Origin: Pristiophorus japonicus
Taxonomy: Eukaryota
Assembly (NCBI RefSeq): GCF_044704955.1
Contig: NC_091985.1
Coordinates: 115,320,001 to 115,384,000, forward strand
Length of the DNA stretch: 64,000 nucleotides
Direction of reading: 5' to 3'
The position numbers and the translations under genes were made by a program. Each line of letters begins with the position of its first letter. The stretch's first letter is position 1. Of this stretch, positions 10,593-64,000 are shown piece by piece. Under the pieces are notes generated by a model that was given only the letters and a program-made list of their open reading frames with translations, was not told where the DNA came from and ran no database searches.

Positions 10593-10774
10593 TAACGCCC
10601 CCCCCCCACCCCTGCCACCATGGGGCATTGTGTGTGGGTCACGTATTGGTTATGAAGTGAATGGCTGTCGTGATTTCCGTATCTCCAATGATGTCCCTTG
10701 TCACACACACACCGAGCTTTCCGAGAAATCGGTGTGGATGTAAAGAGGGAAGAACATGATCCATCTTCCCTGAG

Positions 10775-19033: not shown

Positions 19034-19074
19034 CAGCTCTTTTCTGAGAGACGTGGGTGGCTCTGAAAAGAGCC
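19034..19074 (-). terminator. Histone mRNA 3' stem-loop and U7-binding HDE (H1 copy A)
   Basis: Minus strand GGCTCTTTTCAGAGCC (19059-19074) followed by ACCCA and AAAAGAGCTG (19034-19043). Confidence 0.95.
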
Positions 19075-19110
19075 GTTGGGTTCAGATGTTTACAAGTTGC
19101 ACTTGATATT

Positions 19111-19791: not shown

Positions 19792-19867
19792 GTCGGGAAC
19801 TGTGTCGAAAATCTCTCTGACAGTCAGAACTGGGTCAGAAATGAATCCAGAGGTGGCGGCACAGAGC

Positions 19868-19942
19868 AATTTAAAGGCAGCGAGCGGACGGGGCGGAGAC
19901 ATCCTGCTGTCAGCTCTCGGCCCCTGCAGCATTTCTGTGTTT
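19868..19942 (-). promoter_or_regulatory. H1 promoter: H1 (AC) box, GC box, TATA-like element
   Basis: Minus strand AAACACA (19936-19942), CCGCCC (~19891-19896), TTTAAAT (~19869-19875). Confidence 0.7.
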
Positions 19943-20549
19943 CTCTCTCCCACAAACTCTCCCATACCAATGAAAATCGGTCACTCCACGATCCCAGTCT
20001 AGATCCTTCCTCATTCTAAGACCACAATGTTTGCTGTCGAAAAACTTCCAGCCGAATTCAAGACCCCAGTCCCGATTTAAACCCCTTTCAATGCTGCACT
20101 GATCGCGCTCTCTCAGCCGATCGCTGGCATGGTCTCTGGTTTTCGACTGAAATCTTGACATGAACTCAAACATTACCTTAAATTCCCACTTCGGGGCTGA
20201 GCAGGGGCACGGGGCGATCCTATGACTGGGAAATCATTTTATTTTAGACAAGAGGCACTCGGAAATCGGGCGATGAGTCGGGACACACAAACACAGTGAC
20301 ATTGGACACAGCCGCCCGCCCCTTTAGCACACTCTCTCTGACATTCCGGACATTCACAGGACTAACTGTTCCCCAGATTTACAGTTCCCAGGACAGGCTT
20401 TCCTCTCCGCTCGGCCTGTGCTGCGGATTCACGGGGGTTAGTTGTAGTTTCCCAGCTCAGTAACTGTTAAACATTCTTAGGCCGGCGCTCCTCACAGAGT
20501 CTGTTCCCCAGATTCAGGGGCAGGAGCCAATCACAGCTCTGGCTGTGTT

Positions 20550-22310: not shown

Positions 22311-22814
22311 ACACCGGCTTTTAAATTACTCTATTGTGCACACGCTGAAATATGTAAGGCAGACAGAATGTGAAGAACCTGCTATTTATGTGCAGTTTTC
22401 TCTCCCCAAATGAGCAGTGAACGTTCCTGGTTTACTTCCAGTCTCGCCCTGCTTGCTGTTATTGGACAGTGAGCAGTGGAAACAGATCCAGACAGTAAGG
22501 ATGTGAGGAGTTATACAAAGACCATTTATTGCAGGTGCCAGGTGATAAGTGTGAATGACACATTTTAAACAGAGGCTATTAATTTCAGTTGAACGGTTAG
22601 TCTCATGGGAGTGAAAAATAGAAATCAGATCAGTGCAAATATCCCTACTCCATGGGATAGTCCCATTCATTGAGCAGTGCAGGGGCTGGATTGTGTCTGA
22701 ATGTTCCTAAATTGCTGAAAGTCTGCCCAACACACCTGATATGCAGAGGCTCAATGCTGCAGTGGAATCAGATTCTGACACTGTATCGCTGGCTTTCCTT
22801 TGTGGTTCTTGATA

Positions 22815-39407: not shown

Positions 39408-41355
39408 GGGCTAGATTTTACACTTTTGTGCAGATTGCCCAAAAATGGGCGTTATTTCCGGCGTGTACGGTAAAAATGGGTTTTCAGATCGCCGGCTTCT
39501 CGCCCATAATCAAAGCACCTAGTCTCCACTTTTGAAATTGGACATTACCACGAACGATACGAAAAAGGCGACAGCATTAAATCTCTCTGACCTTCTGCCT
39601 TAAAGTATCACCATCCTTAACAACGGCATGGCAACGCCCGATTTCTGCGATTCAGGAGGTCAAGGGTCATAATGACATGCTCAGAAGAGGAGACAGAGAG
39701 AGGGAGATGAGAGGGACTGAAAGCATATGTGGCTGTGGTGTGTGCTTCTTTGGCTGTTGAGGGAGGCACGAGGGAGATTCACCACCAGCAGCAAAAAGCC
39801 TACTAACCACCAAGAACATAGTTGACACCGAGTTTTTGTCCAACAAATAATATATATAACATGGAAGAGATGGTGGAGGCCCTGGATTTGGTAGCCAGGA
39901 ACACTGGTGGCAGAGGACTTCCAGTGGTCCTGGAGTGCGGCACTGCACCCCAAGGTGCAGCACCCCCATTGCCAATGACACAAGAGCCAGGAACATCTTG
40001 CTTCTGGCTTGGAGCATGTTCCCACCTCGGGACCATCCTCTCCCTTATCCGTCCAAGCAGCTGTTCGGCTATCATCCCCCCCCCTAATGAAGCATTGCCT
40101 GAGGAACTCCTCGTCCAGGCGGCATGGAGTCAGGAGGGGAAGGGGAAGGGTAGAGGTGGGGAGGAGAAGTGGAGGGGGGTGTGGAGGAAGGGCTGGTTTT
40201 TACAGAAATACTGATGATTTCAGACAAATGTTCAGTTTAAATGTTTTTTATTTAACAAAACCTTGTTGCGCACTGGCTCAGATAGCTGCACTATTGCACG
40301 CTGGTGATTCCTTATCAAAGGGTATAATTACACTTAACTTCAATCAACTTAAACTTTAATTGTCACCAATGATGTATGACCTGCACACTCAGCAGTGTGT
40401 CAGCCTTGTAAATACCACCAACGTTCTTTCAGGCAAAGCGCTCATTGATGAGCTCCTGAGATAAGGCTCTTGCAGCTATCATGCCACCACGGGCCCTTTC
40501 TTGCGGTCTACGGGGGGGGGGCAGTGGCATGGCTTCAGCGTCAGTCTGCTTGTCTGAGTCGATGTCAGCGTCCGCCTCCTCTTCCTCTCTTTGGTGAGGT
40601 GGACTGTCAGACTTTCAGGCAACTCTTGTGCCCTCCTGGTAGCCAAGTTGTGCAGCATGGAGCACACCACGACAACATCAGTCTGGCACATCTTACATTG
40701 GGCACATAATGCTGTGAGTGTATCTTCGGTCATCTCAAGCCTGCAACATGTAATTGGTCATCAAGACAGGGTGAGAAAGGACAGGCCCCATTGCAATAGC
40801 TCTGTTTCCAACCGATTGGTCTCAAAGAATGAATGTCACGACGAAGACACATATTAAATTCCAATCATTCACAGTATAGTAAAGATGTTTGTACAGATGT
40901 TCACATCACCTCCAAATACCTCCAGAGTACATCCGAACTCCCCTGAGGTTAAAGCAGAACATCCTTTTAAAGAATGCGACATGTGATGTAGAACATGGCA
41001 TCCATAACGCTGTGATTAGTTCCAGTTAGTTCCACTTTTTCCGGGCGTTTATTTGGGCGAGCGATATAGTGGGCGATATGTGTGCGAGGTGATGAAAGTG
41101 ACGCTGGGCGATCTCACGGCCATTAGTTTTGGCCAATGTGATCTTTAAGACAAAAAAAGTGAGCGAGCAGTATTATTTTTTCCCAGCGTTACGCACATGG
41201 GGAAAGTAACACTCGGCGATAAGTTTCCGAAAAATGCCCGGTCAGTTTCCATTTTGTGGCTAAATAGGCGATATATGGCCGTTATACGTCATTTCAGCGG
41301 TAAAATGGACATTAAGTGAGCGTTAAGCATGCAAAAAAAGTGGAAAATCTAGCCC
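39408..41355. mobile_element. PIF/Harbinger transposon deletion derivative 1
   Basis: TIRs GGGCTAGATTTT(A)CACTTTT and AAAAGTGGAAAATCTAGCCC. Minus-strand transposase C-terminal remnant VVVVCSMLHNLATRR (40479-40733). Subterminal regions are homologous to 41468-44581. Flanks ATA/ATC. Confidence 0.82.
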
Positions 41356-41467
41356 ATCGAGAGACATCAACAGAGAGATAGAGACACAGAAACAGAAGGA
41401 CAGAGTCACCTGTCTATTGGTGCGAGGGACCGATATTCTCAGGGGACTTTCACATTCCAGACTCTAT

Positions 41468-44400
41468 GGGCTAGAACCTCCACTTTGGTGCTTATCGTCC
41501 AAAAATGGGCATTATTTCCGGCGTGGGCAGTAATAAAGGATTTTCAGATCGCCGGCTTCTCGCCCATTCTCAAAACACCTAGTTTCCATTTTTGAAAATG
41601 GGCGTTACCGCGAGCGATATGAAATAGGCGGTAGTGTTAAATCTCTCTGACCTTCTGCCTTAAAGTATCGCATCCTTAGCAACGGCATGGCAATACTGAT
41701 TCCTGTGATTCAGGAGGTCAAAGGTCATAATGACATGCGCAGAAGAGGAGACAGAGAGAGAGGGAGCTCAGAGGGACTGAAGGCGTGTCTGGGTGTGGCA
41801 TGGCTGCTTTGGAGGGAGACTTTAGAGCTTCACAGCAAGTAGGCAAACAAAAATTAGCTGTTACCAGCCACATATTTGACTGCATTTGGCCTATAATGGA
41901 GAGGAGGAGGCATCACAGCACGCTATGGAGACTGACGCTGGAGAGAGCAGTGTGGGAGAGGAGCACATTGGGGGGCGCAAAAGAGCCAGGAGGTTCTCAG
42001 ACGATGCAAATGCCTCCCTCCTGCAGGAGGTTGAGTTATGCTGGGGTGATTTGACACAGGGACGGCATAGGAAGCCCACCCCAAAGGCATACCAGAAGAT
42101 ATGGACCGAGATAGCAGAGGTGGTCTTCGGCGACCAATGAGGTGCAAGAGGGCAATCAATGCCGCAAACGATGGAACGACCTTGTGGGATCCGCAAGAGT
42201 AACTAATACATTGATTTACATGTACTTATGTATTTATATAATTTGATTTGTAACAGTCATGAGTGACTATCATCAGATGTGAGGTCTTTCACTTTTACCA
42301 GTAATGTTTTACTCAAAGCCTGTGGTCACGGTGCACGTCTTTAGGTAAAGAATGATAATTTCTTAATAATCATGATTACATCTGTTGGTTATGTGTTGTA
42401 TCATTGTCTGTGACAGTACCTAGCAATGATATCACGCAATGATCTCAAGCCATGTCATCCTGTCACCTTTTACAGAAGAAGCTATCGACGATGAGGTCCA
42501 GACACAGGTGAATGGGTGGGGGGCACCAGTCCCCAGCTACATCATCGACATGTAAGAGCGTGTGCTCGCACTCGTGGGGTACCACCCCCGGACAGCCATG
42601 GACGCATCTGCAGACCCTGAAGTGATGCCACGTGAGTAAAGCTTACACCATTGCGCAATGTAATGTCAATAGATGCCACACCCACTCATATCCAAACATT
42701 CGTATATGATAGATGATTTCTAAAATAGTCATAGAAATAATGATGGCCTAATGAAAATCATTGCAATGCAAATGTGTTGGTGGTCATGAAATGTAATGTC
42801 TGCGATGATTTTGAGAGCGGTGGTGCTTTTGTCGTGCATATGCTGTATGTAGCGCTGGACTCACCTTGTGACCCTAGCACCCCATTCTCCTCTAATAACC
42901 TCATTTGTGTTTTTCAGCTCAGCCAGCAGCGCGTCCCAAGGCAAGACCACAGAGGCCAGAAGGTGAGGGCGTGGAACAGGAGTCGACGGACAATCCTACG
43001 TCTGGTGCTAAAGAGCTCCGATTCTCGCCCATCAATCCGCTGGGTCTGTTCTCCACAGATGAGAGCATGGATTTCGAGGAACCTGCATCGCCACACTCCA
43101 GAAGCCATTCCACCCGAAGGCTATCTAGTGGTCCTCCGGTCATTCCCATCTCCACTGGAGGTACCGGCCCCAAGCACCTCGCCACAGGGCACCCAATTTG
43201 TCCTCAGCACTGCGCCGATCCCACGGAGGTCCCGTGAACACGACAGGTCTGTTCCACATGCACCACATGACAGCGGAGAAATCGTACAGTTTTCCAGGAG
43301 GACTGTAGACATTGGTGAATAGCTCATCGAAGCATTGGGGAGCATATCCCGACAGCTGGCCACCATGACGGAGTACATTCCGCGGATGGCGGAGACCCTG
43401 GATGCGATAGCCAGGAACACTGCTGACACAGGCCTCCCAGTGGTCCCCAAGCGCGACACTCCACTGCTAGTTCCGCACCACCGCTGCGAACGACAGATGA
43501 GAGCAAGGACCAAGATCCTGCTTCTGCATCAGAGAATGTTGCCCCCTTGGCATCCCCCGCTCCCGTACCCATGCAACGACCGCATCTACCTTCATCCCCA
43601 ATGAGGCACCGCCTGAGGAGCTCCTCAGCCGTGGAGCGAGGAGGGGAAGGGGTAGAGATGGGGAGAAGAAGGGGAGGGGGGGAAGGAAAGTGAGGTGCAT
43701 GTCCGCAGGTGATGGCAGTGTTATATCTCCATCTGGGTGTATGCAATTTGTTGCAATGTATCGGGGCTGGGGACCACGCTCCAGCTTTGCCTTTGTATTC
43801 TGTGTTGCTGGACATGTTGAACATGTGATTGATGTCAGTGGTGGAAAAAGTGTGGTGTGGGCGGGGATACTTATGATTTCAGACCAATGTTGGTATAACA
43901 TTTTTGTGATTGAACATAACCTTGTTGCGCATTGTCTCAGATACCTGCACCGTTGCACACTGTTGATTCCGTAACATGAAAGGGGTTAAATACAACTTAA
44001 CATCAATCAACGTAAACTTTAACTGGCACCATTGATGTCTGAGCTGCACACACATAGCAGTGTGTCAGCGTTGTCACTCTCATCAACGCTCTTTCAAGCA
44101 AATTCTTCAGATTTCAGCTCCTCACGTAAGAGTGGGATTTTAAAAATACCAGCCACACCGCTGGCATTCGTTCAGAACAGTTCCACCTTTTGAGGGCGTT
44201 TTTTTGGGCGAGCGATATTGTGGGCGATGTGTGTGCGAGGTGGGAAAAGTGACGGTGGGCGATCTCCTGGGCGTTAGTTTCGCCAAATGAGCTCTTTACG
44301 ACAAAAAAGTGGGCGGACGGGATTATTGAATTTCGCCGTTAATTCCGTGCGGAAAGTAATGCTTGGCGATACTATGGGCGTTGGTTTCGCTCATTCTGAT

Positions 44401-44581: not shown

Positions 44582-45443
44582 TATGAAAACTTTGTTGCTC
44601 CTGACTCTGCCTGCCCACTAATCTGAGTACATACGCTTTATCCCTGCTCTCTGACTCATACTTCCCAATCCATTTCCAATTCAACAGGCTACTTCCAATT
44701 CCATACATTCTCATTTTTGATAGCAATAACATCTCTCCACATTGGGAAATTGAACCCTGGTATCCCTGGTTATAGATGGGCACACTGAGCATTATGGGCA
44801 CAATGAGGAAATAATACTAATGACCTGGCTAGGAGTGACGCCCCCATAAGCTCACGAAAGGCATTAACCGCTTCGAGTGAGACTGGAGGGGTCAACTGCT
44901 CCTTTTAGGGATTAATCAATTACTGTGCGACTGGAGGGGTAGTACACTTCCTTCAGGAATCATCCACGTAGTCTGGGACTGAAGGGAGGCAGGGTATCTT
45001 CCCCGAATGACACGATTGGGTTTTTTCCTCAATCCGGAATTTTTTATGGTTATTAATCCACAAATTGCCAGATATTTTTGAACTGTGGGAATTGAACACC
45101 ATCCAGTTCGATTCCAGTCCTATGGCCACTAAAGTTCCATACCTGACCTGTGAGCACTTTGTTATCTTTAGCAGTCCAGAGCCGGCACTGAGTTAGAAAC
45201 CAGAAATGGGAGTGTGATATCAAAGGAAGGAATTGGTGCTGAACCTTTAAATAATTGGTGAGTACCTTTTAAATACCACCTACAAGTTAGAGTTGAAAAA
45301 CTGTTTACAGGAAAGGAGGAAATCTGTAGAAAGAACAAAGAGAGGACAGAGATCAAGGATAAGGATGATTTGGGGTATGAGTAGGCTCTAACACGGTCAA
45401 CCGGGGCACGGTACTAACGAATAAGTATCAGTCAGGAGATGCG

Positions 45444-46950
45444 ATGGAAGTACAAGAGTAGCCCACTAAGGGAAAGGTAGCCCCTTAGCAATCTTAGAAT
45501 AGCGGGCGAATACAACTGGGGACCCGAGGGATCTATAGGGAAAATGCTAGCAGATAAAAACATGAGACTAATTGAGGGAATGAAGAAAAAGGGATGGCAA
45601 CCAGACGACCCACCGGAGGCAGGCGAAGTGGTGGGAGTGCCAGACAAGAAGTATTAGCCTGCTATTGGGAACAAAATAAAGAGAAGGAAAGGAAGGATAA
45701 AATAATACAGGAACTAAAAGCTAAAATAAAAAAGATAGAAGAGGCAGAAGTAAGCAGTAGGAATGGTACAACATGTGCAGCAGTAACTGGGTGACCTACA
45801 GTGCCACCTACCCCACTGCCTGCACCGGTACTAATATATCCCCCACTGGAAGTTTTAAGTGAAGAAATAGAGAATAGTGGGGGACCAGAGTTGGCTCGCA
45901 AATATAATCCAGACGATGACGACTGGGGAAGAGAAGTTGGACCTCCCCCATACCAGAAGGTACGGGCAGCCCCGATCAAGGTAGAATCTGTACCCGGCAC
46001 CCCAGCTGTCCCAGCAGTACCGGCTGCCGGAGGCAACCTGGGCGCGCCCACAATACCTGCCGTGACGCCTCAGATAAAAACCACCTATGTGTCACTGACA
46101 CCCGGGGACACATTGAAGTTATTACAAATGCCACCCATGTTAGAGAGGAGACGAAGTACTGAACAGTTTGGGCAGAAAATACGGGAAATAAGAATATGCC
46201 ACAGCCTTCACAACCGAGATGTTGTGTTAGGTAGTAAGCGTTAGTTAGTAACAGCACAAATGACTGAAGAAATGTGGCAACAGTTGGGACAACGACACTT
46301 GGTGTGCGATGATAGCCCCCACCATTGCGCAGTCGGAGGCAGAATATCAGGCGTTTAAAGCAAACGTAACTTGGGTAGCAGGAGCAATACCCATAAACTG
46401 GGGAATAATCATGGGGGTCACTCAAAACAAGGGGCAATCCGCACATGACTATGAAGAGCGGAAATGGGTGAACTTCCAAATGTACTCGGGAATACTGAAT
46501 CCCACCAGGGATAATCAAGCATTCCTAAAAATATACAAAGACGGGTTGAATACTGCACTCGAAGACATATTAAAAACAGGGCTAGTCATAATGCAAAACT
46601 ATGACGGCTTATCCAGACTGGCGTCTGAGCTGGATGCTACTCAGAAAAGGAAAGTAGCTTCGGTAGAAGCGCATGTGGCCACAGTGGCAGCAGCTGCGGA
46701 AGGAACGAGTGAGGAAGGAAAACTACACCCAGCCCCCTTGACTTGTTTTCATTGTGGAAAAGACGGCCACTTTAGTGGAGAGTGCCAGCATATAAAAGCG
46801 GCTCAAGGGAGGAGTGGGCAATCAAGGCCGAAGTGCCAGAACTGTGACAAATTAGACCATACAGCGAGGAAATGCTGGGCTAAGGGGGAGGGGCGGAAGA
46901 ACAGGGACCCAGACAGATTAGAGGAGCCCCAGGAGGAGAACCACCCCTGA
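45444..46950 (+). pseudogene. gag: ERV gag (disrupted)
   Basis: PPPY late domain (45942-45953). Two CCHC knuckles, CFHCGKDGHFSGEC and CQNCDKLDHTARKC. Confidence 0.85.
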
Positions 46951-47119
46951 CCAAGGGAGAAGTGGTAGCGCTCCTTAGAGAAGCTCGGCGGACTCTGTGA
47001 CCATCCCCCTCCGCAAGAGACGCTTGCTAACGAGGATGTCATAAGTATGCTACAGTTGGCAGCCACTCAATAGGGGCTACTGGCCCCCGGTGAAGATGTG
47101 GAACCACAAAGAGAGGACC

Positions 47120-50100
47120 CAAGAATGTTAGTGCAATGTTAGGGGGCTGGCATTGTGGGATGCTGATAGACACGGGAGCGTCAATATCCATAACTAATCT
47201 AGACTTACCCCTTACCAAGGAAACGATCAGCATGCAACGAGTGGGAGGAGGTAACAGAAAGGCAACTTTAAGTGAAATTGTACTATTGGAAGTACAGGGG
47301 GTAATACTACCCACCCAGTATTGGTGCTGCCCCAATCCCAAAGGCACCATATTAGGATAGAAATATTAAGGGAAATAGGGGTACTCGTAACCGAGTAGTC
47401 TGGGGAGACGAGCATCAAACTCAGTGTAAATTTAACCACCCGGGCCATCAGCAGCAGCAGGTGCCTGGGATCTGTCCAATAGATCCCGAGTGGGAAACAA
47501 AGGGTGCTTGGGGAAGTATATGTCAGTTATACCCTGCCCTATGGGCCCAACACAAACAGGACTGTGGGTTGATGGGGCCCGGGCCAGTCAAGATCCCAGG
47601 CGCAGAACATAAAGCCCACAGGCAACACCCGCTGAAGCCCAACGCTGAAGCAGCTGTCCTTCAGATAGTGAAAGAATTGGAAAGGCAAAGGGTGGTGAGA
47701 CAAACAATAGCTACAAACAACTCACCAGTATGGCCGGTAAAGAAACCAGACGCCTCATATAGGCTGACAATAAACTATACTGTCTTAAATAAAGTTACAC
47801 CCCGGGAGCACCCGATAGTGGCCAGCCCGACAACTATTTTCAATGGCTTGGGCCCGGAACATAAAATATTCACCGTATTGGATATAGCAAATGGATTTTG
47901 GGCCATACCCTTAGACAAAGGGTCACAAGGGAAGTTCGCCTTCACTGTAAGAGGAAAGCAGTATACATGGACTAGAGTGCCCCAAGGATTCCATAACAGC
48001 CCAAGTAAATTCCACCGGACGCTGGCTGGGGTCCTGGAGCCAACAGATGTAGGGGAAGTAAGTACCCTCTTACAATATGTTGACGACAGAGCGTCCACCA
48101 CGGAGAAACAGCACGTGCTGACATTGACCACGGTGCTTGGGGCCCTACAACAGGCAGGGCTGAAAGCCAGTCAAAAAAAGGCCAAGATAGAGAAGGGCCA
48201 AGTCACATACCTAGGGTACATAGTAACACAAGGAAAAAGGCAGAGGATAGGAAGGAGGCCATTAGGACAATGCCAAAGGCAGGGACCGTAAAGGGAGTCA
48301 GACAGGTAGTAGGACTGTTTAATTACTGTCGGAACTTTATTCCAGTATATGCAGAAATGGCTCAGCCCATACAAGATTGGGTAAAAGGAGGAAAGCCCTC
48401 CCAAGAGCTGGTAGACTGGGGCTCCGAACAAGAAGCAGCCTTTCAACAGCTGAAACAGGCCCTTATGAGCGCCCCCACCCTGAGAGTACCGGACCAGAAT
48501 AAGCCCTTCCATGTTTATAATCACCAGAGCAAAAATCACTATAATGCAGTGGTGGCCCAGCAACATGGGGACAAGCAATGACCGGTGAGTATTACTCCTC
48601 TAAGCAACAACCTGTAGCTGCAGGATTATCTAGATGTGTAGCCGCTCTCGACTGCGCAGGCAGGGCAGTCAGAATTAGTGAACCCATAGTAATGTCAGGA
48701 CAAATTATCCTACATACGCAACATACCCTGGTAGAGCTATTAAACACGGGGAGACTGAGAACAATGTCAGACGCAAGAGCGACATGGGAAGCGGTACTAA
48801 TACCCCCGAGCAGCACAGTAACAATAGTAAAAGATAGCAGTAACAACCCCACAGGATGGATCATTACAGAAGGCCACGTTCATGAACGTAACCCGATAGA
48901 GGGGGCAGAGGAAAGTAGCTCGATAAAAGAAGAGCCACTCGAGGGAGCAGAAATGGACCTTTACATACACGGGTCCCATCGGTACATCGACCGAAAGCCC
49001 CAAACGGGTGGGCGGTAGTAGACGGTGAAGGGCAAACACGGGGAGTTGGGCAGTTAGAAGGGAGCCTTTTGGCCCAAGTGCCGAATTAGTCGCCCTAACA
49101 GAAGCCCTCAAATGGGCAAAAGGTAAAAGGGTAAAAATATATAGACAGCCAATACGCGTTTGGGGTGGTCCACGATACTATGGTAGCCTGGTGTCGGCGA
49201 GGTTATATGACATTGGGGAGAGGACCAATTCGACACGAGAACATCGTTAAGGAACTGGTAAAGGCTTCCCTCCAGCCCCAGGAGGAACTGGTAAAGGCTT
49301 CCCTCCAGCCCCAGGAATGTGCAATAGTACAGATCAAAGCCCATAAGAAAATTACTGACAGACATCAGCAAGGTAATGCATGGGCGGATGAGGCAGCTAA
49401 GTGAGCGGCAGAAGTACGGGGCCTACGGGCTAAAATAAGTGCCTGTGCACTTGGGCCGGAAGAAGTAAATATGTTTAAAGTACAGGAGGCAACCATACAG
49501 CAGGATTAAGATGAATGGAAAAGACAGGGAGCTAAACAAGGCGCGGATGGAATCCGGAGGAAAGATTGTAATGTGGTAGCCCCAGAGTGCATACAACAAA
49601 ACTTATTGAGTATATACCACGGGTATGCGCATACAGGTAAGACCAGCATGACGAGTTCAATGTCCCAATGCTGGTGGTGGAAGGGATTGGGAAGAGATAT
49701 TGAAAATTACTGTAGGAAGTGCTTAACATGCGTAAAGCATAACCCAGGTGGAAAAATAAAGGTCAGAATGGGACATCAACCCTGAACAAAGGGACCATGG
49801 GAAAACCTGCAGATAAACTTCACGGGCCCGTTGCCCAATCACCAGGGAAAAACATATTGTTTGGTTATAATAGATCAATTCACAAAATGGATAGAAGCAT
49901 TCGCAACTAGAAATTGCTCAGCTGAGACGGTGGCTAGAATATTAGGAGAAATTATACCTAGGTGGGGAATGTCCCTACAGATAGATTCAGATCAGGGTAC
50001 ACACTTCACGGGTAAAGTAATGAAATAAGCATGCGCCCTACTGGGAATCAAGCAGAAATGTCATATCCCCTATCATCCGGAATCGTCCGGATTAGTAGGA

Positions 50101-50390
50101 CGTACGAACGAAGGACCCTGAAGAATGCATTGGTCAAGGTGATCGACGAGACAGGAAAGGGATGGGTAGATATGCTGCCCTGGATTTTAATGAAGTTAAG
50201 GGCGACCCCAAACCAGACCACCAGACTCACAACTTTCGAACTAATGACAGGAAGGGCAATGAGATTACCTGAGGTTCTAATGACGGAGAGTGATGACGTT
50301 GGACCCTACCGGGACCGAGTAAGAAGATTTGTGATGGAATTATGTAAACAATTACAAGATCTGAAGGCACCGGGAATCACAATGCGGTAA
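47120..50390 (+). pseudogene. pol: ERV pro-pol (protease, RT, tether, RNase H, integrase; disrupted)
   Basis: LIDTGAS; SPVWPVKKPD, LDIANGFWAIP, VPQGFHNSP, YVDD (48076-48087); AELVALTEAL, KAH..GNAWADEAAK; H..H..CRKCLTC, IDSDQGTHF. Confidence 0.92.
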
Positions 50391-52066
50391 TGGGTCCTTA
50401 TGGGGAATGTTTGCGTGTAAAATAGGTATCCCAACCATCACAATAGCCCCAACCACAACGACCCCAGAACCCCCAGGATGCCCAAACATGACACAGGGGG
50501 CAAGCGGAGGATTAGTAATGAAAACAACTAGAGACAAAATCCACTTCGGGGTACGCCAAAGGGTAATTACGGTATTGTTAAACCTAACGGATATAACGAT
50601 CCCACTGTTTTGTGGTAAGAAAACTATAAGATTATATGAAAACCTAACCCTAAGGGCCCTTGAGGGGCCCAAATTCAAGACTATGAAGTTCAACGTAAAA
50701 AAGCCAAATAAATATGGGAAAGGCGGGAGGAGAAAGAGGGGAATATTGGAAATGGTGGGCGCGGGATCTTCAAACAATAGAAGAGCAGATCATCAACCTG
50801 ACACAGATCTTAAAAGGACTGCTGGAAAGGGGAGATGATAGGGGACGGGGCGGAGTAGGAACTGCTACAGGTTGCCCATACATTGCGGAACCATGCATAA
50901 ATGATAAATTTGGTAAACCAGGCTGGATAAAAAAGAAAGAAGGCCGAGATAGTTTGTGCGGGATATGGGGCTTGGATGCTCAATACGGTGGAACATAACA
51001 TAGAACAACTCCAGAATGGGGAGGTGCCAGATTGGATAATCAATGATGTATTTGCTGAATGGACATTGGGCAAGAATGACACCCAAGCCTGTGCGGTCCG
51101 GATGAATAGCCATGCCTGGGTCCCTAAGAACAGGTGTGTAACCAGACATCAGAATATAATAAGGTTTGTGTTATCAATATGTACCACAATATGACATGAC
51201 AAAGGGAAACACATTGTACTAAGTAAACAATATAGGAGAAATAAGGAATCAGACCCATGTGCAGTTTTACAAATTGCATCAGTACGTAATTAAAAAGGGA
51301 AACAATACCAAAGGTGTCCATGTTAAAGATTGTTTTAAGAATAATCAAGTTGTTTTATGCCGACAGCATCCAGACCTCGGTAACAACAACTGTGGATATG
51401 GCCAAACAGAAGGACGTGTTGAGTGTCACACCGCTGACAATGGATTCCGAAACGACTGCAACCTCACAAGGAAATGGAGGCTGGTGTGTGAGCACCACGG
51501 CGGTCAACATGACAGTGGGAGGAGGTACCTACTGCCCGATCACGATCATCGACTTCTGTTTTACACCAAAAGAAGTCGTCGATATTCAGGGATATATCAT
51601 ATATCCAGAATTGAAAGGCGAGTCCGTCAACGGGATGGCGATGGAAACTATCAAAGCAGGGTATAAAGGTTTTGAGGAACCACAAGGACAACATATACCC
51701 AAACTTAGTGAAGAACAAACTAAGTTGGAACAGGACATCCATGAACAACGGCAGAAGTACATCATCCTGATGAAGAAGATCGACAAACTCCAGAAGGACA
51801 CTAAAGAAATGTTGGCAAACCAACCCTGGTATACAAGGCTTTGGAACTTTGGACTAAACATGCAGGTGCACCCCTGGATTAAAATAATATCCCAAGTATT
51901 GGTGATTGTACAATGTGTGGTTTTAACGGTATTGTTGATTGAACTATGTTGGAGATGTAAACGACGGGCGAGGAAAGCCATTGCTCAGGCCACCATAAAA
52001 GCCATAGAAGAAACTAAACCTTTAGTATCTAAGGAAAAATCTGTAAAACGGGTAAATGGTGTGTAA
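50391..52066 (+). pseudogene. env: ERV env-like glycoprotein gene (disrupted, 5' part probably deleted)
   Basis: Furin site RRKR (50728-50739) then GILEMVGAG. Heptad LQTIEEQIINLTQILKGLL, Cys-rich middle, second heptad, Trp-rich stretch, TM helix IISQVLVIVQCVVLTVLLIEL and basic tail. Confidence 0.82.
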
Positions 52067-52222
52067 AGGTAAAGAGATACGAGAAACAATCCTGAAGTAA
52101 GGGCTTGGCCACCCAGAAGGATGGATTAAGATGACAATATCACTTCCCCTTTGGATGAAATAATGAGGGGACGGCACATTGGCCTATCTTGGGGTATATA
52201 GCCAAGGGCCAACAGGGGGGAT

Positions 52223-52700
52223 TGTAAGGGCAAGATTGATTATCAAAGATGTTATCTGACTATTGTGAAAGCACTGAGCTGGCTAAACAAGAGGTATGCT
52301 TAAAACTACACATATGCATAAAGCACAATAGAGCTACGAGATGATCACTCGTTGACCTCGGGCTCAAGGGAGCAGTAAAGAAATCCAAAGAGGAACTATT
52401 ATAACCATATAACAATATAAGGCGAGTGACATCAGGAAGAAGGGAACAAATGGGTATTCGATCATGCGTTGGTACAACCAATCACGTCACTGTTAAGGTC
52501 CATCCACGAGGACACTCATGTGCCAAAACCTGTATAATTAAGGTATAATTTGAACAGTTCAGTGGAGATCCTCTCAGGCGACTAAGAAGTGAGATGCTCC
52601 CCCTGCATGCGCTGGAATAAAAGATCGTTGAAGCTTATCCAAGGTATCAGGCTGTTGAATCCGGGCTTGTTACGAGAGGACAAGGGCAATTCTCCCCATC
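52223..52700 (+). repeat. ERV 3' LTR (3' boundary approximate)
   Basis: Starts TG after the PPT. Contains CCAAT (~52478), TATAA (~52533) and AATAAA (52616-52621) in the expected order. Confidence 0.75.
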
Positions 52701-52701
52701 A

Positions 52702-54890
52702 ATGGAGATGTTGAAAGTTATGAAGGATTTTGATAGAGTAAATAAGAAGAAACTGTTTCCAGTAGCAGAGGGGTTGGTAACCAGCAGACACAGAATTGGC
52801 AATAGAATCAAAGGGAGAGATGAGGAGATATTTTTTCCACAGCAAGTTATTATGATCTGAAATGTACTGCCGAAAAGGGTGGTGGAAGCAGATTCAATAA
52901 TAACGAAAGAAAGAGTAGGGCTTATTAGAGACCAAAAATGAAACTTGTGTGTGGAGGCAGAAATTATGGGCATGGTTCTTAATGAATACTTTGGGTGTGT
53001 CTTCACAAAAGAGAGGGACGATACAGATATTGTAGTTGAGGAGCAGGAGTGTGAAATATTGGATGAGATAAATATAGTGAGAGAGGAAATATTAAAGGGT
53101 TTAGTATCTTTGAAAGTAGATAACTCTCTAGACCCAGATGAAATGTATCCAAGACTATTAAGAGAAGCAAGGAAATAAATAACAGAGGCTCTGACCACCA
53201 TTTTCCGATCCTCTGGCTACAGGTGTGGTGCTGGAGGACTGCAGGACAGCTTAACTTTGTACCATTGTTTAAAAAGGGAGAAAGGGATAGATCAAGTAAT
53301 TACAGGCCAGTCAAGCTAACCTCGGTGGTGGGCAAATTATGGGAAAAATTCTGAAGAAAAGCATAAATTATTTTAAAAAGTACAAATTAATCAAGGACAG
53401 TCAACATGGATTTGTTAATGTAAGGTCATGTCTGACTAACTTGATTGAACTTTTTGAGGAGACAACAAGGAGGGTCGATGAGTGTAGCGCATTTAAAACT
53501 GAGATGAGGAGGAATTTCTTCTCTGAGGGTTGTAAATCTATGGAATTCTCTGGCCTAGAGAGCTGTGGAGGTTGGGTTATTGAATATAATTATGGCGGAG
53601 TTAGGCAGATTTTTGAGCGATAAGGGAGTAAAGGGTTATGGGGAGCGGGCAGGGAAGTGGAGCTAAGTCCACGATCAGATGAGCCGTGAACTCATTGAAT
53701 GGCAGAGCAGACTCGAGGGGCCGTATGGCCTACTCCTGCTCCTATTTCTTATGTTCTTATGATGTAGTCGACATGGCAAACTGGTCAGAAAAGTAAACGT
53801 CCATGGGATCCAGGGCAAAGTTGCAAGTTGGATCCAAAATTGGCTAAGAGGCAAGAAGCAAAGGATGATGGTTGATGGGTGTTTTTGTCACTGGAAGGCT
53901 GCTTCCAGTGAGGTTCAGTACTAGGTTCCTTGCTTTTTGTGGTATATATCAATGATTTAGACTTGAATACAGGGGGCATGATTCAGAAGTTTGAACATGA
54001 TACAAAAATTGGCCGTGTGCTTGATAGTGAGGAAGAAAGCTGTAAACTGCAGGAAGGTATCAATGCATTCGTCACGTGGCAGAAAAGTGGCAAATGGAAT
54101 TGAGTCCGGAGAACTGTGAAGTAGTGAATTTGGGGAGGGCTAACAAGGAAAGAGAATACACATTAAATGGTAGTAGGATATGGAGAAGTGAAGACGAACA
54201 GAGAGACCTTAGAGTGCATGTTCACAGATTCCTGAAGGTAGCAGGACAAGTAGATAAGGTGGTTAAGAAGGCATACGGAATACTTGCCTTGATTAACTGA
54301 GGCATAGAATATAAGAGCAGAGAGGTTATGCTTGAACTGTATAAAACACTAGTTAGGCCACAACTGTACTGCGTGCAGTTCTGGTCATCGCATTACAGCA
54401 ATGACATGTTTGCACTAGAGCGGGTGCAGAGAAGATTTACGAGGATGTTGCCTGGATTGGAGAATTTTAGCTATGAGGAAAAATTGCAGATGCTGGGTCT
54501 GTTTTCTTTGGAACAGACGAGGCTGAGGGGAGACCTAATTGAGATGTATAAAATTATGAGGGGCCTGGATAGAATGGCCTGTTTCCCTTCACCCAGGAAT
54601 TAACATGCGGGGGACATAGATTTAAAGTAATTAGAGGAGATATGAGGAGAAATTTCTTCACCCAGAAGGTAGTGGGGGTCTGGATCTCACTGCATGAAAG
54701 GGTGGTAGAGGCAGAAACCCTCATCACATTTAAAAAAATAATTGGATGTGCACTTAAAGTGCCGTAACCTACAGGGCTGTGGACCAACAGCGGGAACGTG
54801 GGAGTAGGCTGGATAGCTCTCGGTCAGCCAGCACCTACACGATGGGCCTAAATGGCCTCCTTCTGCGCTGTAAATTTCTATGATTCTATG
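52702..54890 (+). mobile_element. Old CR1 fragments with a nested CR1 3' tail (~53490-53760)
   Basis: RT motif relics (QHGFV, VRPQL.YC). Tails TTCTTATGTTCTTATG at ~53760 and TTCTATGATTCTATG at ~54890. Confidence 0.85.
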
Positions 54891-55082
54891 CTGACTGACC
54901 TGAGTATTTCCAGCATTTTCTGTTTTTATTACATACTAACCCTTAATGTTCGGCTTCTTGCGCCAGGATTCTGGGTTCCAGTTCAGCTCCTGCTGCAGCC
55001 CCTGTGAATCGAATCAATGCACAATCTGATGTTTGTTTTAGAAATATTTAACGCCGTTAACTTTAGCCCTTTTGCGGCCTGC

Positions 55083-55186: not shown

Positions 55187-55227
55187 GGGCGAGTGCCGGA
55201 ATAATTGCTCATTGTGAGATTGTGGAA

Positions 55228-55558
55228 ATGTCGGGAAAAGGAAATAGGTGCCGGGAAAGTTCGGGCCAAGGCCAAGTCTCGCTCATCCCGAGCCAGACTG
55301 CAGTTCTCGGTGGGCCGTGTTCACAGGCTCCTGCGAAAGGGCAACTTTGCTGAGCGTGTGGGTGGCGGAGCCCCGGTCTATCTGGCTGCTGTGCTCGAGT
55401 ACCTGACCGCTGAAATCCTGCAATTGGCCGGCAACGCGGTTCGCGACAACAAGAAGACCCGCATCATTCCCAGGCACCTGCAGGGCGGGGTGTTGCCCAA
55501 TATCCAGGCTGTGCTACTGCCCAAGAAAACCAGCGCCGTGAGCTCCAAAACAAAGTGA
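55228..55558 (+). pseudogene. H2A: Histone H2A pseudogene
   Basis: The ATG at 55228 (MSGKG) is out of frame with the body because of a 1-nt insertion near codon 6. A 60-bp deletion joins RHLQ to GGVLPNIQ. Several substitutions at conserved sites (RAGLQFP>RARLQFS, EILEL>EILQL). Confidence 0.9.
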
Positions 55559-55588
55559 AGCAGTGAAACTTTAATCTAATAACTCAAA

Positions 55589-55604
55589 GGCTCTTTTCAG
55601 AGCC
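55589..55604 (+). terminator. Histone mRNA 3' stem-loop (H2A pseudogene)
   Basis: GGCTCTTTTCAGAGCC, followed by a degenerate HDE (GAAAGGGGCAG). Confidence 0.9.
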
Positions 55605-56235
55605 GCCCACAGTATCGGTGAAAGGGGCAGGTTGCTGTCTGAAGCGAGTCACATTTTTAAGTCTGTTTTAATCACTCCGGATGTTTGCCTCCAGCCATTA
55701 TACTTCGGTTCTGTACTCACACTCGCTCTCCTCCAGTTAACGGTGGATTATAGTTTGTCTGAATTCCACCACTTTCGATCTAAAATACCAATCTGTTCTG
55801 GCGTATTAATGGTTGCTGTATGAATAGCTTGGAAGATGAATTAATTTAGTAATAAGGCCTGATGTAGTTCTAGTCTTAACACCGTAAGAGGGGAAAGTCT
55901 TAAAATTTGAACTTTGGCACAGTAAGCCGGGGCAGGAACATTAACGGGCTCCTTTCCTAAACATTACACTTTTTCCTCAGATCTACCTTTTTTTTTACCC
56001 CACCCCACTCCACTCCACTCCACTCCATTATCCCCACAAAAAGCTGCCGGTGATTAGTGAGACTGCGATGTTTATTAATATCTCAGCAGATGAATCGGAC
56101 AGAGGGCGCAGCAATGTATCCGGCTGTTCCAGATCTCGGTGCTGCACCCCTGGAAGTACAGTTCTGTGGCACCACATAACCATGTCGCACCGAAAGTTAA
56201 TGAGCAATACATATCAGTATGCCAGCAGGCGGTTA

Positions 56236-56276
56236 CATCTCTTTCGTTTGCGGATTTGGTGGCTCTTAAAAGAGCC
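56236..56276 (-). terminator. Histone mRNA 3' stem-loop and HDE (H3)
   Basis: Minus strand GGCTCTTTTAAGAGCC (56261-56276) then AAAGAGATG. Confidence 0.93.
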
Positions 56277-56301
56277 GTTGTTGCACTTGGTGTTGGAGGG
56301 T

Positions 56302-56751
<450 letters not shown>

Positions 56752-56778
56752 TTAATGTGAAGCCGGTTCTGCCGCCGC

Positions 56779-57049
56779 CTTTTAAAGGGACTGTGAGGGT
56801 CCGCCCCGGGGCTGTGATTGGCTACAGGTTCTGTGAGGGAACGCCCTGGGGCTGTGATTGGCTACAGGGTCTGAAGGACCGCCACGGGACTGTGATTGGC
56901 TACAGGGTCTGAAGGACCGCCACGGGACTGTGATTGGCTACTGTCCCCTCGTCAATCAGGGACGAGCTGACAGTCAGAAGGAAACGGCGACAATTACGGG
57001 GCCCTGATTGGCTGAGTTCAAATTTGTCATCATTTTCAAAACACCCGCC
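56779..57049 (-). promoter_or_regulatory. H3 promoter: TATA-like element, five CCAAT boxes (four in a tandem 38-40 bp repeat), CDE/CHR-like element
   Basis: TTTAAAAG ~56779-56786. ATTGG on + at 56817, 56857, 56895, 56933 and 57007. Minus strand GGCGG-GTGT-TTTGAA at 57035-57049. Confidence 0.75.
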
Positions 57050-57541
57050 AATTTCAATGTAACAAATAACGGAGTTTGAGCGAAAGCCTGTTTGTGACAA
57101 CAAATAATAACCTCCCTTTTATAGTCCCGGATTGCCGGCGCTATTTTACAATCAGGTTTTAAATCGGCTCCTTGTTCGGTTCTGTCAGATGGGGAATGTT
57201 CTTCACTTTGTGCGCTCCTGTAAAACGGCTGATGGGGAATCGGCAGCACGTCTTAGATCTCCCGATTAACATTCCCATTGGCCGCACTGGCTGCCGACTC
57301 GCTTTCACCCGCTCTACAATATCGGTATTTAAACAATAAATGTGCGGAGAGCCGCAGTGTGTCCATGTGAGACTGCTCTCGCTGTCTTTACACCCAGGGC
57401 GGAAATGTCCCAGGTAAAACACACACACAAATTCTCACTATTTCCCGAACCATTGGCGAGTGTTCGGGAAATCTAACCACATTCATAAATATCTTGAACC
57501 AATTACCATCACAATATATCCCCGCTCGCGTTCCCAGGTCA

Positions 57542-57582
57542 CTGCTCTCTCTGTGAGGTGTTGGGTGGCTCTTAAAAGAGCC
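57542..57582 (-). terminator. Histone mRNA 3' stem-loop and HDE (H4)
   Basis: Minus strand GGCTCTTTTAAGAGCC (57567-57582), ACCCA, then GAGAGAGCAG. Confidence 0.93.
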
Positions 57583-57616
57583 TTTGTTTTGTGCCGAGTA
57601 GAAAGGGTCGAATGGT

Positions 57617-57937
<321 letters not shown>

Positions 57938-59547: not shown

Positions 59548-60247
59548 GGGAGGAGACAGACGGAGAGACCGGGAGGGGAGGAGACAGACAGAGTGACAGA
59601 GCAGAGAGCTCCACCTCCCAGCTCATTCTCCACTTCCAGTTTTCTCCAACCGCCAATTTCAAACCGTTTTTCTTCAGTAGAACCGAAACTCAGCTCTCTG
59701 CTAACTGCAATGCATCACCCCCGAAACCAAATTTTAATTTGATCTATTAAGATTCCTTTAATTTGGTTAATTTATAGTTTTATCGGTTGAGGCCCTTTCA
59801 GGGGGCACAGGGCTGACGTTTCATTGACAATTAACCTAAATGAAAGAGTCAGCGCTCCACACAAACCCTTACAGACTCGGGCTTCATATTCCAGGATTTC
59901 CAGAAACCGGAGTTTGTAAATAAGGTCCTGCTACAATGAAGAGTCAGTAATATTCCCGCCTAAGTGCAGTCCCTTCTGTAACAAGTCGAGCCGGTTCCTT
60001 CTATTTCAGTGGCAGCCCCTATTCCATCTCCCCACACTTCCCGTCCCAGCAGTTTAGTGACAACTTACACACCCAACATATCCCCAGGTCCTGTGAGGCC
60101 CGGCCCAGATCCCATTGTGTTTTAGTGCAGAGTGGGGGAGGGTGCAGCCGATGTCAGCGAGTCACCAGGGATCCTGGGTTTATTGGGAATGATTCCTATC
60201 TGAAGTCTGAGCCAGGCACCGAGACAGGAATCATGTGATTCCGGGAT

Positions 60248-60288
60248 CAGCTCTTTTCTGAGAGACGTGGGTGGCTCTGAAAAGAGCC
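60248..60288 (-). terminator. Histone mRNA 3' stem-loop and HDE (H1 copy B)
   Basis: Minus strand GGCTCTTTTCAGAGCC (60273-60288) then AAAAGAGCTG. Confidence 0.95.
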
Positions 60289-60324
60289 GTTGGGTTCAGA
60301 TGTTTACAAGTTGCACTTGATATT

Positions 60325-61035
60325 TTACTGCGTTTTGGGCGCTGCCTTCTTTGGCTTTGTTGATTTGGGCTTGGCCGCCTTGGGGGTTTTGGGCTTCTTC
60401 GCAGGAGACTTTTTCTTAAGGGCTGACGATCTCACCGACTTATTCGGCGCCTGCGCCTTCTTGGTGCCGGCTTTCTTGGCCGCTGGTTTCTTTGTTGCGA
60501 TTTTCTTGGCCGCTGGCTTCTTCGTTGCGACTTTCTTGGCCGCTGGTTTCTTCGTTGCGACTTTCTTGGCTGCTGGTTTCTTCGTTGCGACTTTCTTGGC
60601 CGCTGGCTTCTTCGTTGAGACTTTCTTGGCCGCTGGTTTCTTTGTTGCGACTTTCTTGGCTGCTGGTTTCTTGGCTGGAGATTTCTTGGCCATTGGTTTC
60701 TTGGCCTTTACCACTTTTTGTTTGACGATTTTGACGGAGCCGGAGGCGCCTTTGCCCACGGTGTGCACCAGGATCCCGTTTTCCACACACCTCTTGATAC
60801 TCCTCTTGATCTGGGACCGGTACTTGGTCATATCCAGGCCGCTGTTAGTCAGAGCCTTCTTTACCGCGATCATGGACATCCCCTTGCGATCGATGCAACC
60901 CCCCACAATCTTGACGATCTGATCGCTCAACTTGGGGCGGGTTGTCTTGGGCCGTCGAGCAATCTTCTTCTTGGGAGCCTTGGTTTGAACGGCGGCGGCA
61001 GGAGGAGCCGTTTCGGCGGCGGCAGTGTCCGTCAT
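60325..61035 (-). CDS. H1: Linker histone H1-like, 236 aa, copy B
   Basis: Same N-terminus and globular domain as copy A, with one extra 10-aa tail repeat. H1 box AAACACA at 61180-61186. Confidence 0.93.
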   Translation of the reverse strand: MTDTAAAETAPPAAAVQTKAPKKKIARRPKTTRPKLSDQIVKIVGGCIDRKGMSMIAVKKALTNSGLDMTKYRSQIKRSIKRCVENGILVHTVGKGASGSVKIVKQKVVKAKKPMAKKSPAKKPAAKKVATKKPAAKKVSTKKPAAKKVATKKPAAKKVATKKPAAKKVATKKPAAKKIATKKPAAKKAGTKKAQAPNKSVRSSALKKKSPAKKPKTPKAAKPKSTKPKKAAPKTQ

Positions 61036-61793
61036 GTCGGGAACTGTGTCGAAAATCTCTCTGACAGTCAGAACTGGGTCAGAAATGAATCCAGAGGTGG
61101 CGGCACAGAGCAATTTAAAGGCAGCGAGCGGACGGGGCGGAGACATCCTGCTGTCAGCTCTCGGCCCCTGCAGCATTTCTGTGTTTCTCTCTCCCACAAA
61201 CTCTCCCATACCAATGAAAATCGGTCACTCCACGATCCCAGTCTAGATCCTTCCTCATTCTAAGACCACAATGTTTGCTGTCGAAAAACTTCCAGCCGAA
61301 TTCAAGACCCCAGTCCCGATTTAAACCCCTTTCAATGCTGCACTGATCGCGCTCTCTCAGCCGATCGCTGGCATGGTCTCTGGTTTTCGACTGAAATCTT
61401 GACATGAACTCAAACATTACCTTAAATTCCCACTTCGGGGCTGAGCAGGGGCACGGGGCGATCCTATGACTGGGAAATCATTTTATTTTAGACAAGAGGC
61501 ACTCGGAAATCGGGCGATGAGTCGGGACACACAAACACAGTGACATTGGACACAGCCGCCCGCCCCTTTAGCACACTCTCTCTGACATTCCGGACATTCA
61601 CAGGACTAACTGTTCCCCAGATTTACAGTTCCCAGGACAGGCTTTCCTCTCCGCTCGGCCTGTGCTGCGGATTCACGGGGGTTAGTTGTAGTTTCCCAGC
61701 TCAGTAACTGTTAAACATTCTGAGGCCGGCGCTCCTCACAGAGTCTGTTCCCCAGATTCAGGGGCAGGAGCCAATCACAGCTCTGGCTGTGTT

Positions 61794-63555
61794 AATCATA
61801 GAATCATAGACATTTACAGCACGGAAGGAGACCATTTCGGCCCATCGTGTCCCTGCCTGCCAACAAAGAGCTATCCAGCCTAATCCCACTTTCCACCTCG
61901 TGGTCCGTAGCCTTGCAGGTTACGGCACTTCAAGTGCATATCCAAGTCCATCTTAAATGTGACGAGGTTTTCTGCCTCTACCATCCTTTCAGGCAGTGAG
62001 TTCCAGATCCCCACCACCCTCTGGGTGAAAACAATTTCCCTCAAATTCCCTCTAAACCTCCTACCAGTTACTTTAAATCAATATCCCCTGGTTGTTGACC
62101 CCTCTGTGAAGGGAACTAGGTCCTTCCTATCCACTCTATCTAAGCCCCTCATAAATTTTTACACCTTAATTAAGTCTCCCCGCAGTCTACTCTGTTCCAA
62201 GGAAAACTACCCAGCCTATCCAATCTTTCATCATGACTAAAATTCTCCAGTCCAGGCAACATCCTTGTACATCTCCTCTATACCCTCTCTGGTGCAATCA
62301 CTTCTTTCTTGTAATGTGGTGACCAGAACTGCATGCAGTACACTAGCTGTGGCCTGACTAATGTTTTATACTGTTCAAGCATAACCACCCTGCTCTTGTA
62401 TTCTATGCCCCTGCTGATAAAGGCAAGTATTCCGTATGCCTTCTGAATCATATTTTCTACCTGTCCTGCTACCTTCAAGGATCTGTGGACATGCACTCCA
62501 AGGTCCCTCTGTTCCTCTACACTTCTTAGTGCCCTACCATTTATTGTGTATTCCCTCGCTTTGTTAGCATCCTCCCCTCACCCCCCCGCCCACATGCATT
62601 ATCTCATACTTCTGTGGATTGAATTCCATTTGCCACTGTTCTGTCCACCTGACCAGTTCATTGATATCTTCCTGCACTCTGCAGCTTTTTTCTTCATTAT
62701 CAACCACATGGCCAATTTTTGTATCATCTGCAAACTTCTTAATCATACCCCCTACATTCAAATCTAAATCATTGATATATACCACAAAAAGCAAGAGCCC
62801 TGCGGAGCTGCACTGCAAACAGCTTATACTTCCTGCCTCTGAGTCCATTGTTATCCAACTTGGCACTTTGCCTTGGATCCCCTAGGCTTTTACTTTTGTG
62901 ACCAGTCTGCCATGTGGGATCATATAAAAAGCCTTGCAAAAATCCATTTTTACTACATCAAATGCACTACCGTCATCGACCCTACTTATTACCTGCTGAA
63001 AAAATTCAATCGTTAGTCTGACATGACCTTCCCCAAACAAATCCATGCTGACTTGTCTTTGATTAATCCGTGTTTTTTTAAATGAAGGTTTATCCTGTCC
63101 CTTAGAATTTTTTCTAAATATTTTCCCACCACCAAGGTTAAGCTTACTGGCCTGTAATTACTTGGTCTATCCCTTTCTCCCTTTGTAAACAATGGTATCA
63201 CGTTAGTAGTCCTGCAGTCCTCCGGCACAACACCTGCAGCCAGAGAGGATTGGAAAATAATGGTTAGAGCCTGTGCTATTTCCTCTCTTGCTTGTCTTAA
63301 TAGCCAGGGAAACATTTCATCCAGGCCTAGGGATTTATCCACTTTCAAATGGGCTACACCTCTTAATACTTCCTCTCTCACAATGTTTAGTTCATCTAAT
63401 ATTTCACACTCTTCCTCCCTGATTACAATGTCTGCATCGCTCCTCTCTTTTGTGAAAACATATGCAAAGTATTCACTAAAAAACATACCCACATCTTCTG
63501 CCTCCACACACAGATTACCTTAATGGTCTTTAATAGGTCCTACTCTTTCTTTAGC
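61794..63555 (-). mobile_element. Old CR1 LINE RT/3' fragment (copy B)
   Basis: Duplicate of 20550-22310. Confidence 0.88.
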
Positions 63556-64000
63556 ACACCGGCTTTTAAATTACTCTATTGTGCACACGCTGAAATATGT
63601 AAGGCAGACAGAATGTGAAGAACCTGCTATATATGTGCAGTTTTCTCTCCCCAAATGAGCAGTGAACGTTCCTGGTTTACTTCCAGTCTCGCCCTGCTTG
63701 CTGTTATTGGACAGTGAGCAGTGGAAACAGATCCAGATAGTAAGGATGTGAGGAGTTATACAAAGACCATTTATTGCAGGTGCCAGGTGATAAGTGTGAA
63801 TGACACATTTTAAACAGAGGCTATTAATTTCAGTTGAACGGTTAGTCTCATGGGAGTGGAAAATAGAAATCAGATCAGTGCAAATATCCCTACTCCATGG
63901 GATAGTCCCATTCATTGAGCAGTGCAGAGGCTGGATTGTGTCTGAATGTTCCTAAATTGCTGTAAGTCTGTCCAACACACCTGATATGCAGAGGCTCAAT

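Follow-up and report, generated by a model that had tools for sequence, protein, structure and literature searches.

An endogenous retrovirus (ERV) present in many copies in the genome of the shark Pristiophorus japonicus carries, in the copy described here, a broken env gene. The envelope protein (Env) that it once encoded was probably a class I fusion protein of the paramyxovirus F type, as predicted from related copies, and the accompanying pol lineage is likely to be neither lokiretroviral nor foamy viral. This copy lies within a stretch of 64,000 nucleotides of contig NC_091985.1, hereafter referred to as the window. Precedents for an F-type retroviral Env are provided by lokiretroviruses, in which five sequences from the available part of the published data have no N-terminal head, and by foamy viruses, whose Env carries an inserted domain and whose Env structures constitute the second F-type retroviral case. 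In the part of the literature covered, no account was found of shark elements that combine an F-type Env with pol of such lineages.

The decayed provirus and its family in the genome

The provirus extends from approximately 45258 to 52701 and comprises gag, protease, reverse transcriptase (RT), tether, RNase H, integrase, env, a polypurine tract (PPT) and a 3' LTR, with the positions collected in Table 1. The gag gene ends in a TAG stop codon (47071-47073) lying in the same frame as the protease, a single-frame gag-stop-pro arrangement that also occurs in copies L048 and L049, while copy L018 reads through that junction in one frame. A deletion between pol and env, already suspected in the first-pass annotation of the window, was borne out by the related copies: the approximately 580 bases lacking at the junction are retained in 6/6 fetched copies that span it (L013, L016, L018, L020, L021 and L023; 84-87% identical). 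Copy L015 breaks at the same place, and L019, a neighbouring ERV copy that is 98% identical to that of the window, has the same pol-env deletion; L019 also retains a 5' LTR, which resembles its own 3' LTR at only 92%. The window copy, without its 5' LTR, is unable to make Env and is inert.

Table 1. Features of the decayed provirus, in positions of the window
Feature	Position	Strand	Basis
Leader remnant; 5' LTR and primer-binding site missing, junction ~45251-45258	45258..45490	+	L019 and L020 carry both there
gag, broken; two CCHC zinc knuckles; start approximate	45490..47073	+	zf-CCHC found in two stretches at E 5.7e-4, narrowly short of the cut-off
Protease (DTG)	47094..47357	+	RVP E 0.017, weak
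Reverse transcriptase (WTRVPQG, LQYVDD)	47356..48288	+	RVT_1 E 1.1e-25
Tether domain and RNase H, broken	48084..49404	+	RT_RNaseH_2 E 3.3e-12; RNase_H E 1.3e-5
Integrase, broken; C-terminus lost to deletion	49510..50370	+	Integrase_H2C2, rve
Junction of ~580-bp deletion; lost: integrase end, env signal peptide, most of N-terminal head domain	50370..50371	.	Sibling copies
env: head end, Thr/Pro linker, F2-like segment (two strands and helix in model)	50371..50727	+	Alignment and model
Furin site RRKR	50728..50739	+	Sequence
env, F1-like portion, broken by several stops and frame changes: fusion-peptide-like segment and heptad A, then domains III, I and II as predicted	50740..51703	+	Model of paralog L013
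Heptad repeat B (HRB)	51704..51814	+	Sequence and model
Transmembrane helix, then basic tail up to stop 52066	51884..51952	+	Hydropathy peak 2.9 in L013
Polypurine tract	52211..52220	+	Sequence
3' LTR, TGT...CA, 479 bp	52223..52701	+	Sequence and sibling copies

From the furin site to the env stop there are 1,327 bases, or 442 codons, in agreement with the roughly 440 codons originally estimated. The fusion-peptide-like stretch, both heptads, the motifs DCFKNNQVVLC, GNGGWCVST and YCP..DFCFTP and one transmembrane (TM) stretch were likewise present, dispersed across five frame segments. The reading frame changes at least four times, and several in-frame stops interrupt it, between approximately 50770 and 51420. 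In the naturally open paralog L013, whose open frame comprises 663 codons and whose segments are 75-86% identical to the window, the distance from the furin site to the TM helix is 400 residues. This ectodomain part holds 7 Cys (slightly more in other copies), so that the post-furin part, initially described as Cys-rich, is better regarded as moderate in Cys content. A Pfam search with the five env fragments of the window returned coiled-coil noise only. Neither a CX5-7CC motif nor the immunosuppressive LQN[RH]xxLD motif occurs in 35/35 aligned family rows, which extends the earlier observation that the window has no visible CX6CC or immunosuppressive motif, and TLV_coat gave no Pfam match in 4/4 paralogs. 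The combination expected of a gamma-type Env, namely an immunosuppressive motif with CX6CC and a short TM ectodomain, was accordingly found in 0/35 rows.

With the last env frame of the window as query, at least 152 matches were obtained genome-wide, a lower bound for which 147 of 14,963 candidates were scored, and these matches form two subfamilies with ~80% and 60-65% identity. Twelve of them were fetched as 10-kb loci, several of which keep long natural frames, such as L013. The ratio dN/dS between the subfamilies was 0.06-0.13 in 11/12 pairs (one was saturated; with dS of 1.6-3.4, the values are approximate) and 0.44-0.67 within subfamilies (9 pairs), which indicates purifying selection between the subfamilies and is as expected if env had been selected during viral replication and had then decayed. 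The env feature of the window is therefore not a chance pattern, given its many copies and their dN/dS. Both LTRs are present at locus L020, with a K2P distance of 0.073 and a 5-bp target duplication; its age is poorly constrained, amounting to 17 My at the mammalian rate but 166 My with the shark rate that the available part of PMC4422223 assumes. L020 was kept for dating, and the LTRs of L019 (K2P 0.089) were set aside, since no match could be made between its flanks. The primer sites of L019, L020 and L022 complement the 3' end of the tRNA-Ser(AGA) of this genome. Contig C23 contains long tandem arrays with a period of ~1.95 kb that include a tRNA-Ser 3' end; exact matches across the genome number 1,022.

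A search among 1.84 billion proteins revealed 30 relatives of the env gene; 16 of the 20 that were looked up belong to sharks or a skate and 2 to frogs, consistent with the shark-like host that had been proposed from the sequence. Two database gene models, P0026 (fbxo15, Heterodontus) and P0029 (a cadherin-like gene, Pristiophorus), are fused to pieces of the env family, and may represent either exonised ERV or annotation chimeras.

Several other features were recorded in the window. Positions 18347-22755 and 59563-64000 form a duplication (offset 41.2 kb, 98.6%), a CT-rich microsatellite block occupies 10770-16000, a 30-bp tandem array lies at 19184-19570, and CR1-like LINE fragments lie at 52700-54900. 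Four histone-like frames are clustered at 55205-57937, which we take to be an H2A-like remnant, H3, an H2B-like frame and H4, and decayed frames at 39700-43900 presumably resemble the Myb/SANT-like gene of a Harbinger transposon.

Evidence for a probable F-type fusion protein

The fold of the Env core was predicted for paralog L013, as a monomer, from 35 aligned natural sequences, giving a mean pLDDT of 67 and a pTM of 0.46; the beta-rich part reached 80-90, and values below 50 occurred in the fusion peptide, in a section of heptad A and in the HRB linker. Eight of the 30 env matches (P0006, P0017, P0019, P0022, P0025, P0026, P0029 and P0032) were omitted from the fold alignment, as they represented the protein of the window itself, were short or chimeric, or had been superseded by P0035. 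An earlier fold calculated from 11 close paralogs was discarded at a pLDDT of 30.

A fold search against fusion proteins, which the first-pass annotation had proposed as a check on its suggestion of an F-glycoprotein-like Env, matched this model to paramyxovirus and pneumovirus F. Foldseek retrieved 83 PDB chains at E <= 0.001 (best E 1.1e-9), and the best 40 of the 83 were all paramyxo/pneumovirus F or foamy Env (foamy 8rm1, E 1e-6). With VIA, 50/50 matches listed were F, the best reaching Z 12.9 with 284 residues aligned at rmsd 5.6, and F of hMPV reaching Z 10.9 over 271-273 aligned residues (rmsd 4.4-4.6); residues 2-401 of the model align to approximately 22-433 of F, starting at the first F2 strand and proceeding without a large insertion. 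Matches in BFVD included lispivirus G, baculovirus F, paramyxovirus F and feline foamy Env. The Env of snakehead retrovirus (SnRV), WDSV and gamma type did not occur among the fold-search matches listed, and is not thereby excluded. The shark Env thus shares with paramyxo/pneumovirus F0 (PF00523), lispivirus G and the F-type proteins of baculoviruses and errantiviruses a predicted fold and the order in which the elements follow one another, beginning with the first F2 strand and ending with HRB and TM, and differs from them in its fused N-terminal head, its retroviral origin and a low sequence identity.

Sequence-based evidence was also obtained. A PF00523 scan of the whole genome, conducted as a stricter first look with 10 candidates, gave one match, a paralog 80% identical to the first env frame of the window, which on its own matched Pfam Fusion_gly at E 1.7e-6 with 27.1 bits, below the cut-off of 29.8; four other paralogs had no Pfam match. 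ESM Atlas ranked Fusion_gly first (0.94, 205/256 features). Sequence searches of the PDB found nothing with L013 and no F protein with a 28-row profile, and a word-index search with the env core across 5.8 billion proteins confirmed 0/4,408 candidates.

On this evidence, an F-type assignment of the Env is very likely. It could be argued that the structural match reflects long helices and a loosely similar layout, and that the Env belongs to a third kind of class I fusogen with no relation to F, given that the TM-scores are low (0.26-0.43), the identities reach only 9-15%, the helices are predicted with low confidence, Z values of 10-13 overlap the range attainable by long helices, and the sequence searches of the PDB gave no match. 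However, the structural matches cover 270-355 residues and take in the beta-rich part, which is the best-predicted one, and the Pfam and Atlas evidence is independent of the model; we therefore consider an unrelated fusogen very improbable.

Placement of the pol lineage

Among named viruses, SnRV gave the highest phmmer score with the window RT (158 bits), followed by WEHV1 (132), foamy virus (121) and MLV (105). P0061 was used as SnRV on the basis of an RT and RNase H match, by eye, to the SnRV of the available part of the PMC7947760 supplement. The best PDB match of the window RT is foamy, which was dropped as a placement because SnRV and WEHV1 score higher; SnRV Pol itself prefers MLV RT within the PDB. 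In an IQ-TREE analysis of 56 of 135 RT rows, picked by hand from a FastTree tree and with a very distant outgroup, the window falls in a 6-row clade (100/97) within a looser group of fish and shark sequences (90/90), outside the class I gamma/epsilon clade (98/96 and 100/99). Teleost members of the RT clade are P0036, P0041 and P0043. A second tree of 29 hand-picked RT-RNase H rows (591 columns, unrooted, with sister family L049 in place of the window) recovered the fish/shark group at 99/97, outside class I at 100/100, and contained a 100/99 split separating L049 from SnRV. The relation to SnRV is unresolved in the RT tree, and the window clade is not its sister in either tree. Reference viruses of the foamy, loki, CmiFLERV and ERV-L groups are absent from both trees, and two scans of IMG/VR for reference retroviruses confirmed none. 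The trees nevertheless agree with the second option raised for this element at the outset, namely another deep lineage.

The first option, a lokiretrovirus, which would be the first in cartilaginous fish, fared poorly. Like lokiretrovirus Env as described in the available part of PMC7947760, the shark Env has an F-type core, an RXKR site, a fusion peptide, a coiled coil and one TM helix, and the two share ordered motifs by eye; the level of the PF00523 match is also like that reported for loki (2.2e-7), and the original screen, with loki in 0/6 chondrichthyan genomes, was counted on the same side. The tether and RNase H in pol are present in both, but they are common to all retroviruses and not diagnostic. 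Against these likenesses, the window RT has PQG where 19/19 loki rows in the available supplement of PMC7947760 have PFG, by-eye identity across 74 core RT columns is higher to SnRV (52) than to Loki-Lch (44), SFV (39) or WDSV (34), and the RNase H motif is by eye nearly that of SnRV (group III) and unlike loki. The RT and RNase H motifs are thus of orthoretrovirus/foamy type. In addition, the shark Env core is preceded by an extra head of 130-240 residues, and cartilaginous fish are not reported as loki hosts in the available part of the literature. Judged from these sequence motifs, above all those of RT, the lokiretroviral reading appears largely refuted; the virus is almost certainly not a lokiretrovirus, which leaves that reading a very slim chance.

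Descent from a basal foamy-like virus, such as a cartilaginous-fish endogenous foamy virus or the CmiFLERV group, with an F-type Env inherited minus the inserted receptor domain, deserves somewhat more weight and is still unlikely. In its favour, the best PDB match of the RT is foamy Pr125Pol, and foamy Env, for which F-like domains I-III and a long post-furin subunit have been described (available part of PMC11468914; PDB 8rm1), was matched in the fold search; shark and frog FLERVs cluster, with their env never found according to the available part of PMC5512871, and the env relatives identified here come from sharks, a skate and frogs. Apart from the Env fold, however, the foamy characters compared are lacking. 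The RT scores and RNase H motif favour SnRV, the shark Gag has two CCHC zinc knuckles whereas foamy Gag is without Cys-His boxes (available part of PMC5210030), and gag-stop-pro lies in one frame whereas foamy pol has its own start in another frame (available part of PMC8278194). The PPT-LTR junction of the window reads GGGATTGT in contrast to foamy GGGTG, the target duplication at the one locus L020 is 5 bp rather than the foamy 4 bp, and in the shark Env, where ~84 residues lead from the start of the core to RRKR, no large domain intervenes between F2-like helix and furin site. Pol is therefore probably not foamy.

Among SnRV and its related ERVs (clade Huo, class III), SnRV has the best-scoring named RT and, by eye, an RNase H motif near-identical to that of the window family, and the layout with a gag stop to be read through is shared; SnRV is not sister to the window family in either tree. 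CmiERV lineage I, from a chimaera (available part of PMC4422223), and XtERV-S (available part of PMC8278194) share the tRNA-Ser primer site, but have a gamma-type TM subunit. Hand translation of CmiERV lineage I gave an RNase H resembling P0149 and L052, not the window, and an env with LQNRMALD and CX6CC; by eye, the window therefore differs from this described shark ERV in both pol lineage and env. With a P0149-like RNase H and the shared primer site, the gamma-type env of CmiERV lineage I suggests that env has been exchanged within that lineage.

Env families, proposed mechanism and implications

Searches with two distant env relatives revealed more families in this genome, with 70 and 150 matches, whose cores are homologous to that of L013 (E 2e-66 to 5e-12). 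Across four env families, the heads have no cross-family match, whereas between the cores E values range from 1e-12 to 1e-79 or better. One other family's head is weakly Ig-like (E 1.1e-4, under cut-off); for the head of the window family, Pfam gave no match, and a C-type lectin assignment (Atlas 0.82) was rejected as being at chance level. The F-type env follows three kinds of pol, represented by the window and L049, by L047 and L048, and by L046, L052 and L057, the last being closest to Xenopus P0149. The pol sequences of the first two never formed one clade in 200 bootstrap trees, and the second and third may belong together in a larger group, weakly tied to SnRV (83/77). The sister families, represented by L048, L049 and the further matches of these searches, include young copies, with one LTR pair identical over 602 bases and many long open env frames. 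Locus L046 contains a 786-codon open F-type env frame (1851-4208, minus strand), 45% identical to the 739-aa bamboo shark protein P0012, with only a frameshifted integrase end detected upstream; from its sequence, this env is a possible candidate for host co-option.

An intact virus of this family would likely have produced Pol by read-through of the gag stop. In its Env, the F fold (domains I-III) is predicted to begin directly after the Thr/Pro linker, and, by the function of F proteins, furin would cut the trimer at RRKR. By analogy with F (available part of PMC11468914), the N-terminal fusion peptide would then enter the membrane of the target, and a six-helix bundle would form as heptads A and B zip together. 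The variable N-terminal head is a putative receptor binder, judging by its position and variability, and would stand in for the attachment protein that paramyxoviruses encode separately and for the domain inserted in foamy Env.

A broader reading is put forward tentatively, at somewhat less than an even chance. The F-type Env may extend beyond lokiretroviruses and foamy viruses to at least three pol lineages of orthoretrovirus type in cartilaginous fish and frogs, one of them just outside class I, as an undescribed radiation that joins a conserved fusion core to exchangeable heads for receptor binding, the head of one family being Ig-like. In a chimaera, a gamma-type Env would be carried by one of these pol lineages, and the F-type Env would be ancestral, with the gamma type replacing it repeatedly. 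Wang and Han (available part of PMC7947760) left four scenarios open for the origin of retroviral Env, because no branch other than that of loki was then known to carry an F-type Env. Additional pol lineages with such an Env, close to SnRV and to the base of class I, would favour an F-type ancestor that was later replaced, or frequent env exchange, and the question of Env origin becomes testable by pairing pol trees with env trees. Some members of this large family are young, and neither Pfam cut-offs nor screens that start from gamma- or beta-type Env detect it. A fixed fusion core combined with unrelated heads, whose role is putative, would represent a third way of joining attachment to the F machine.
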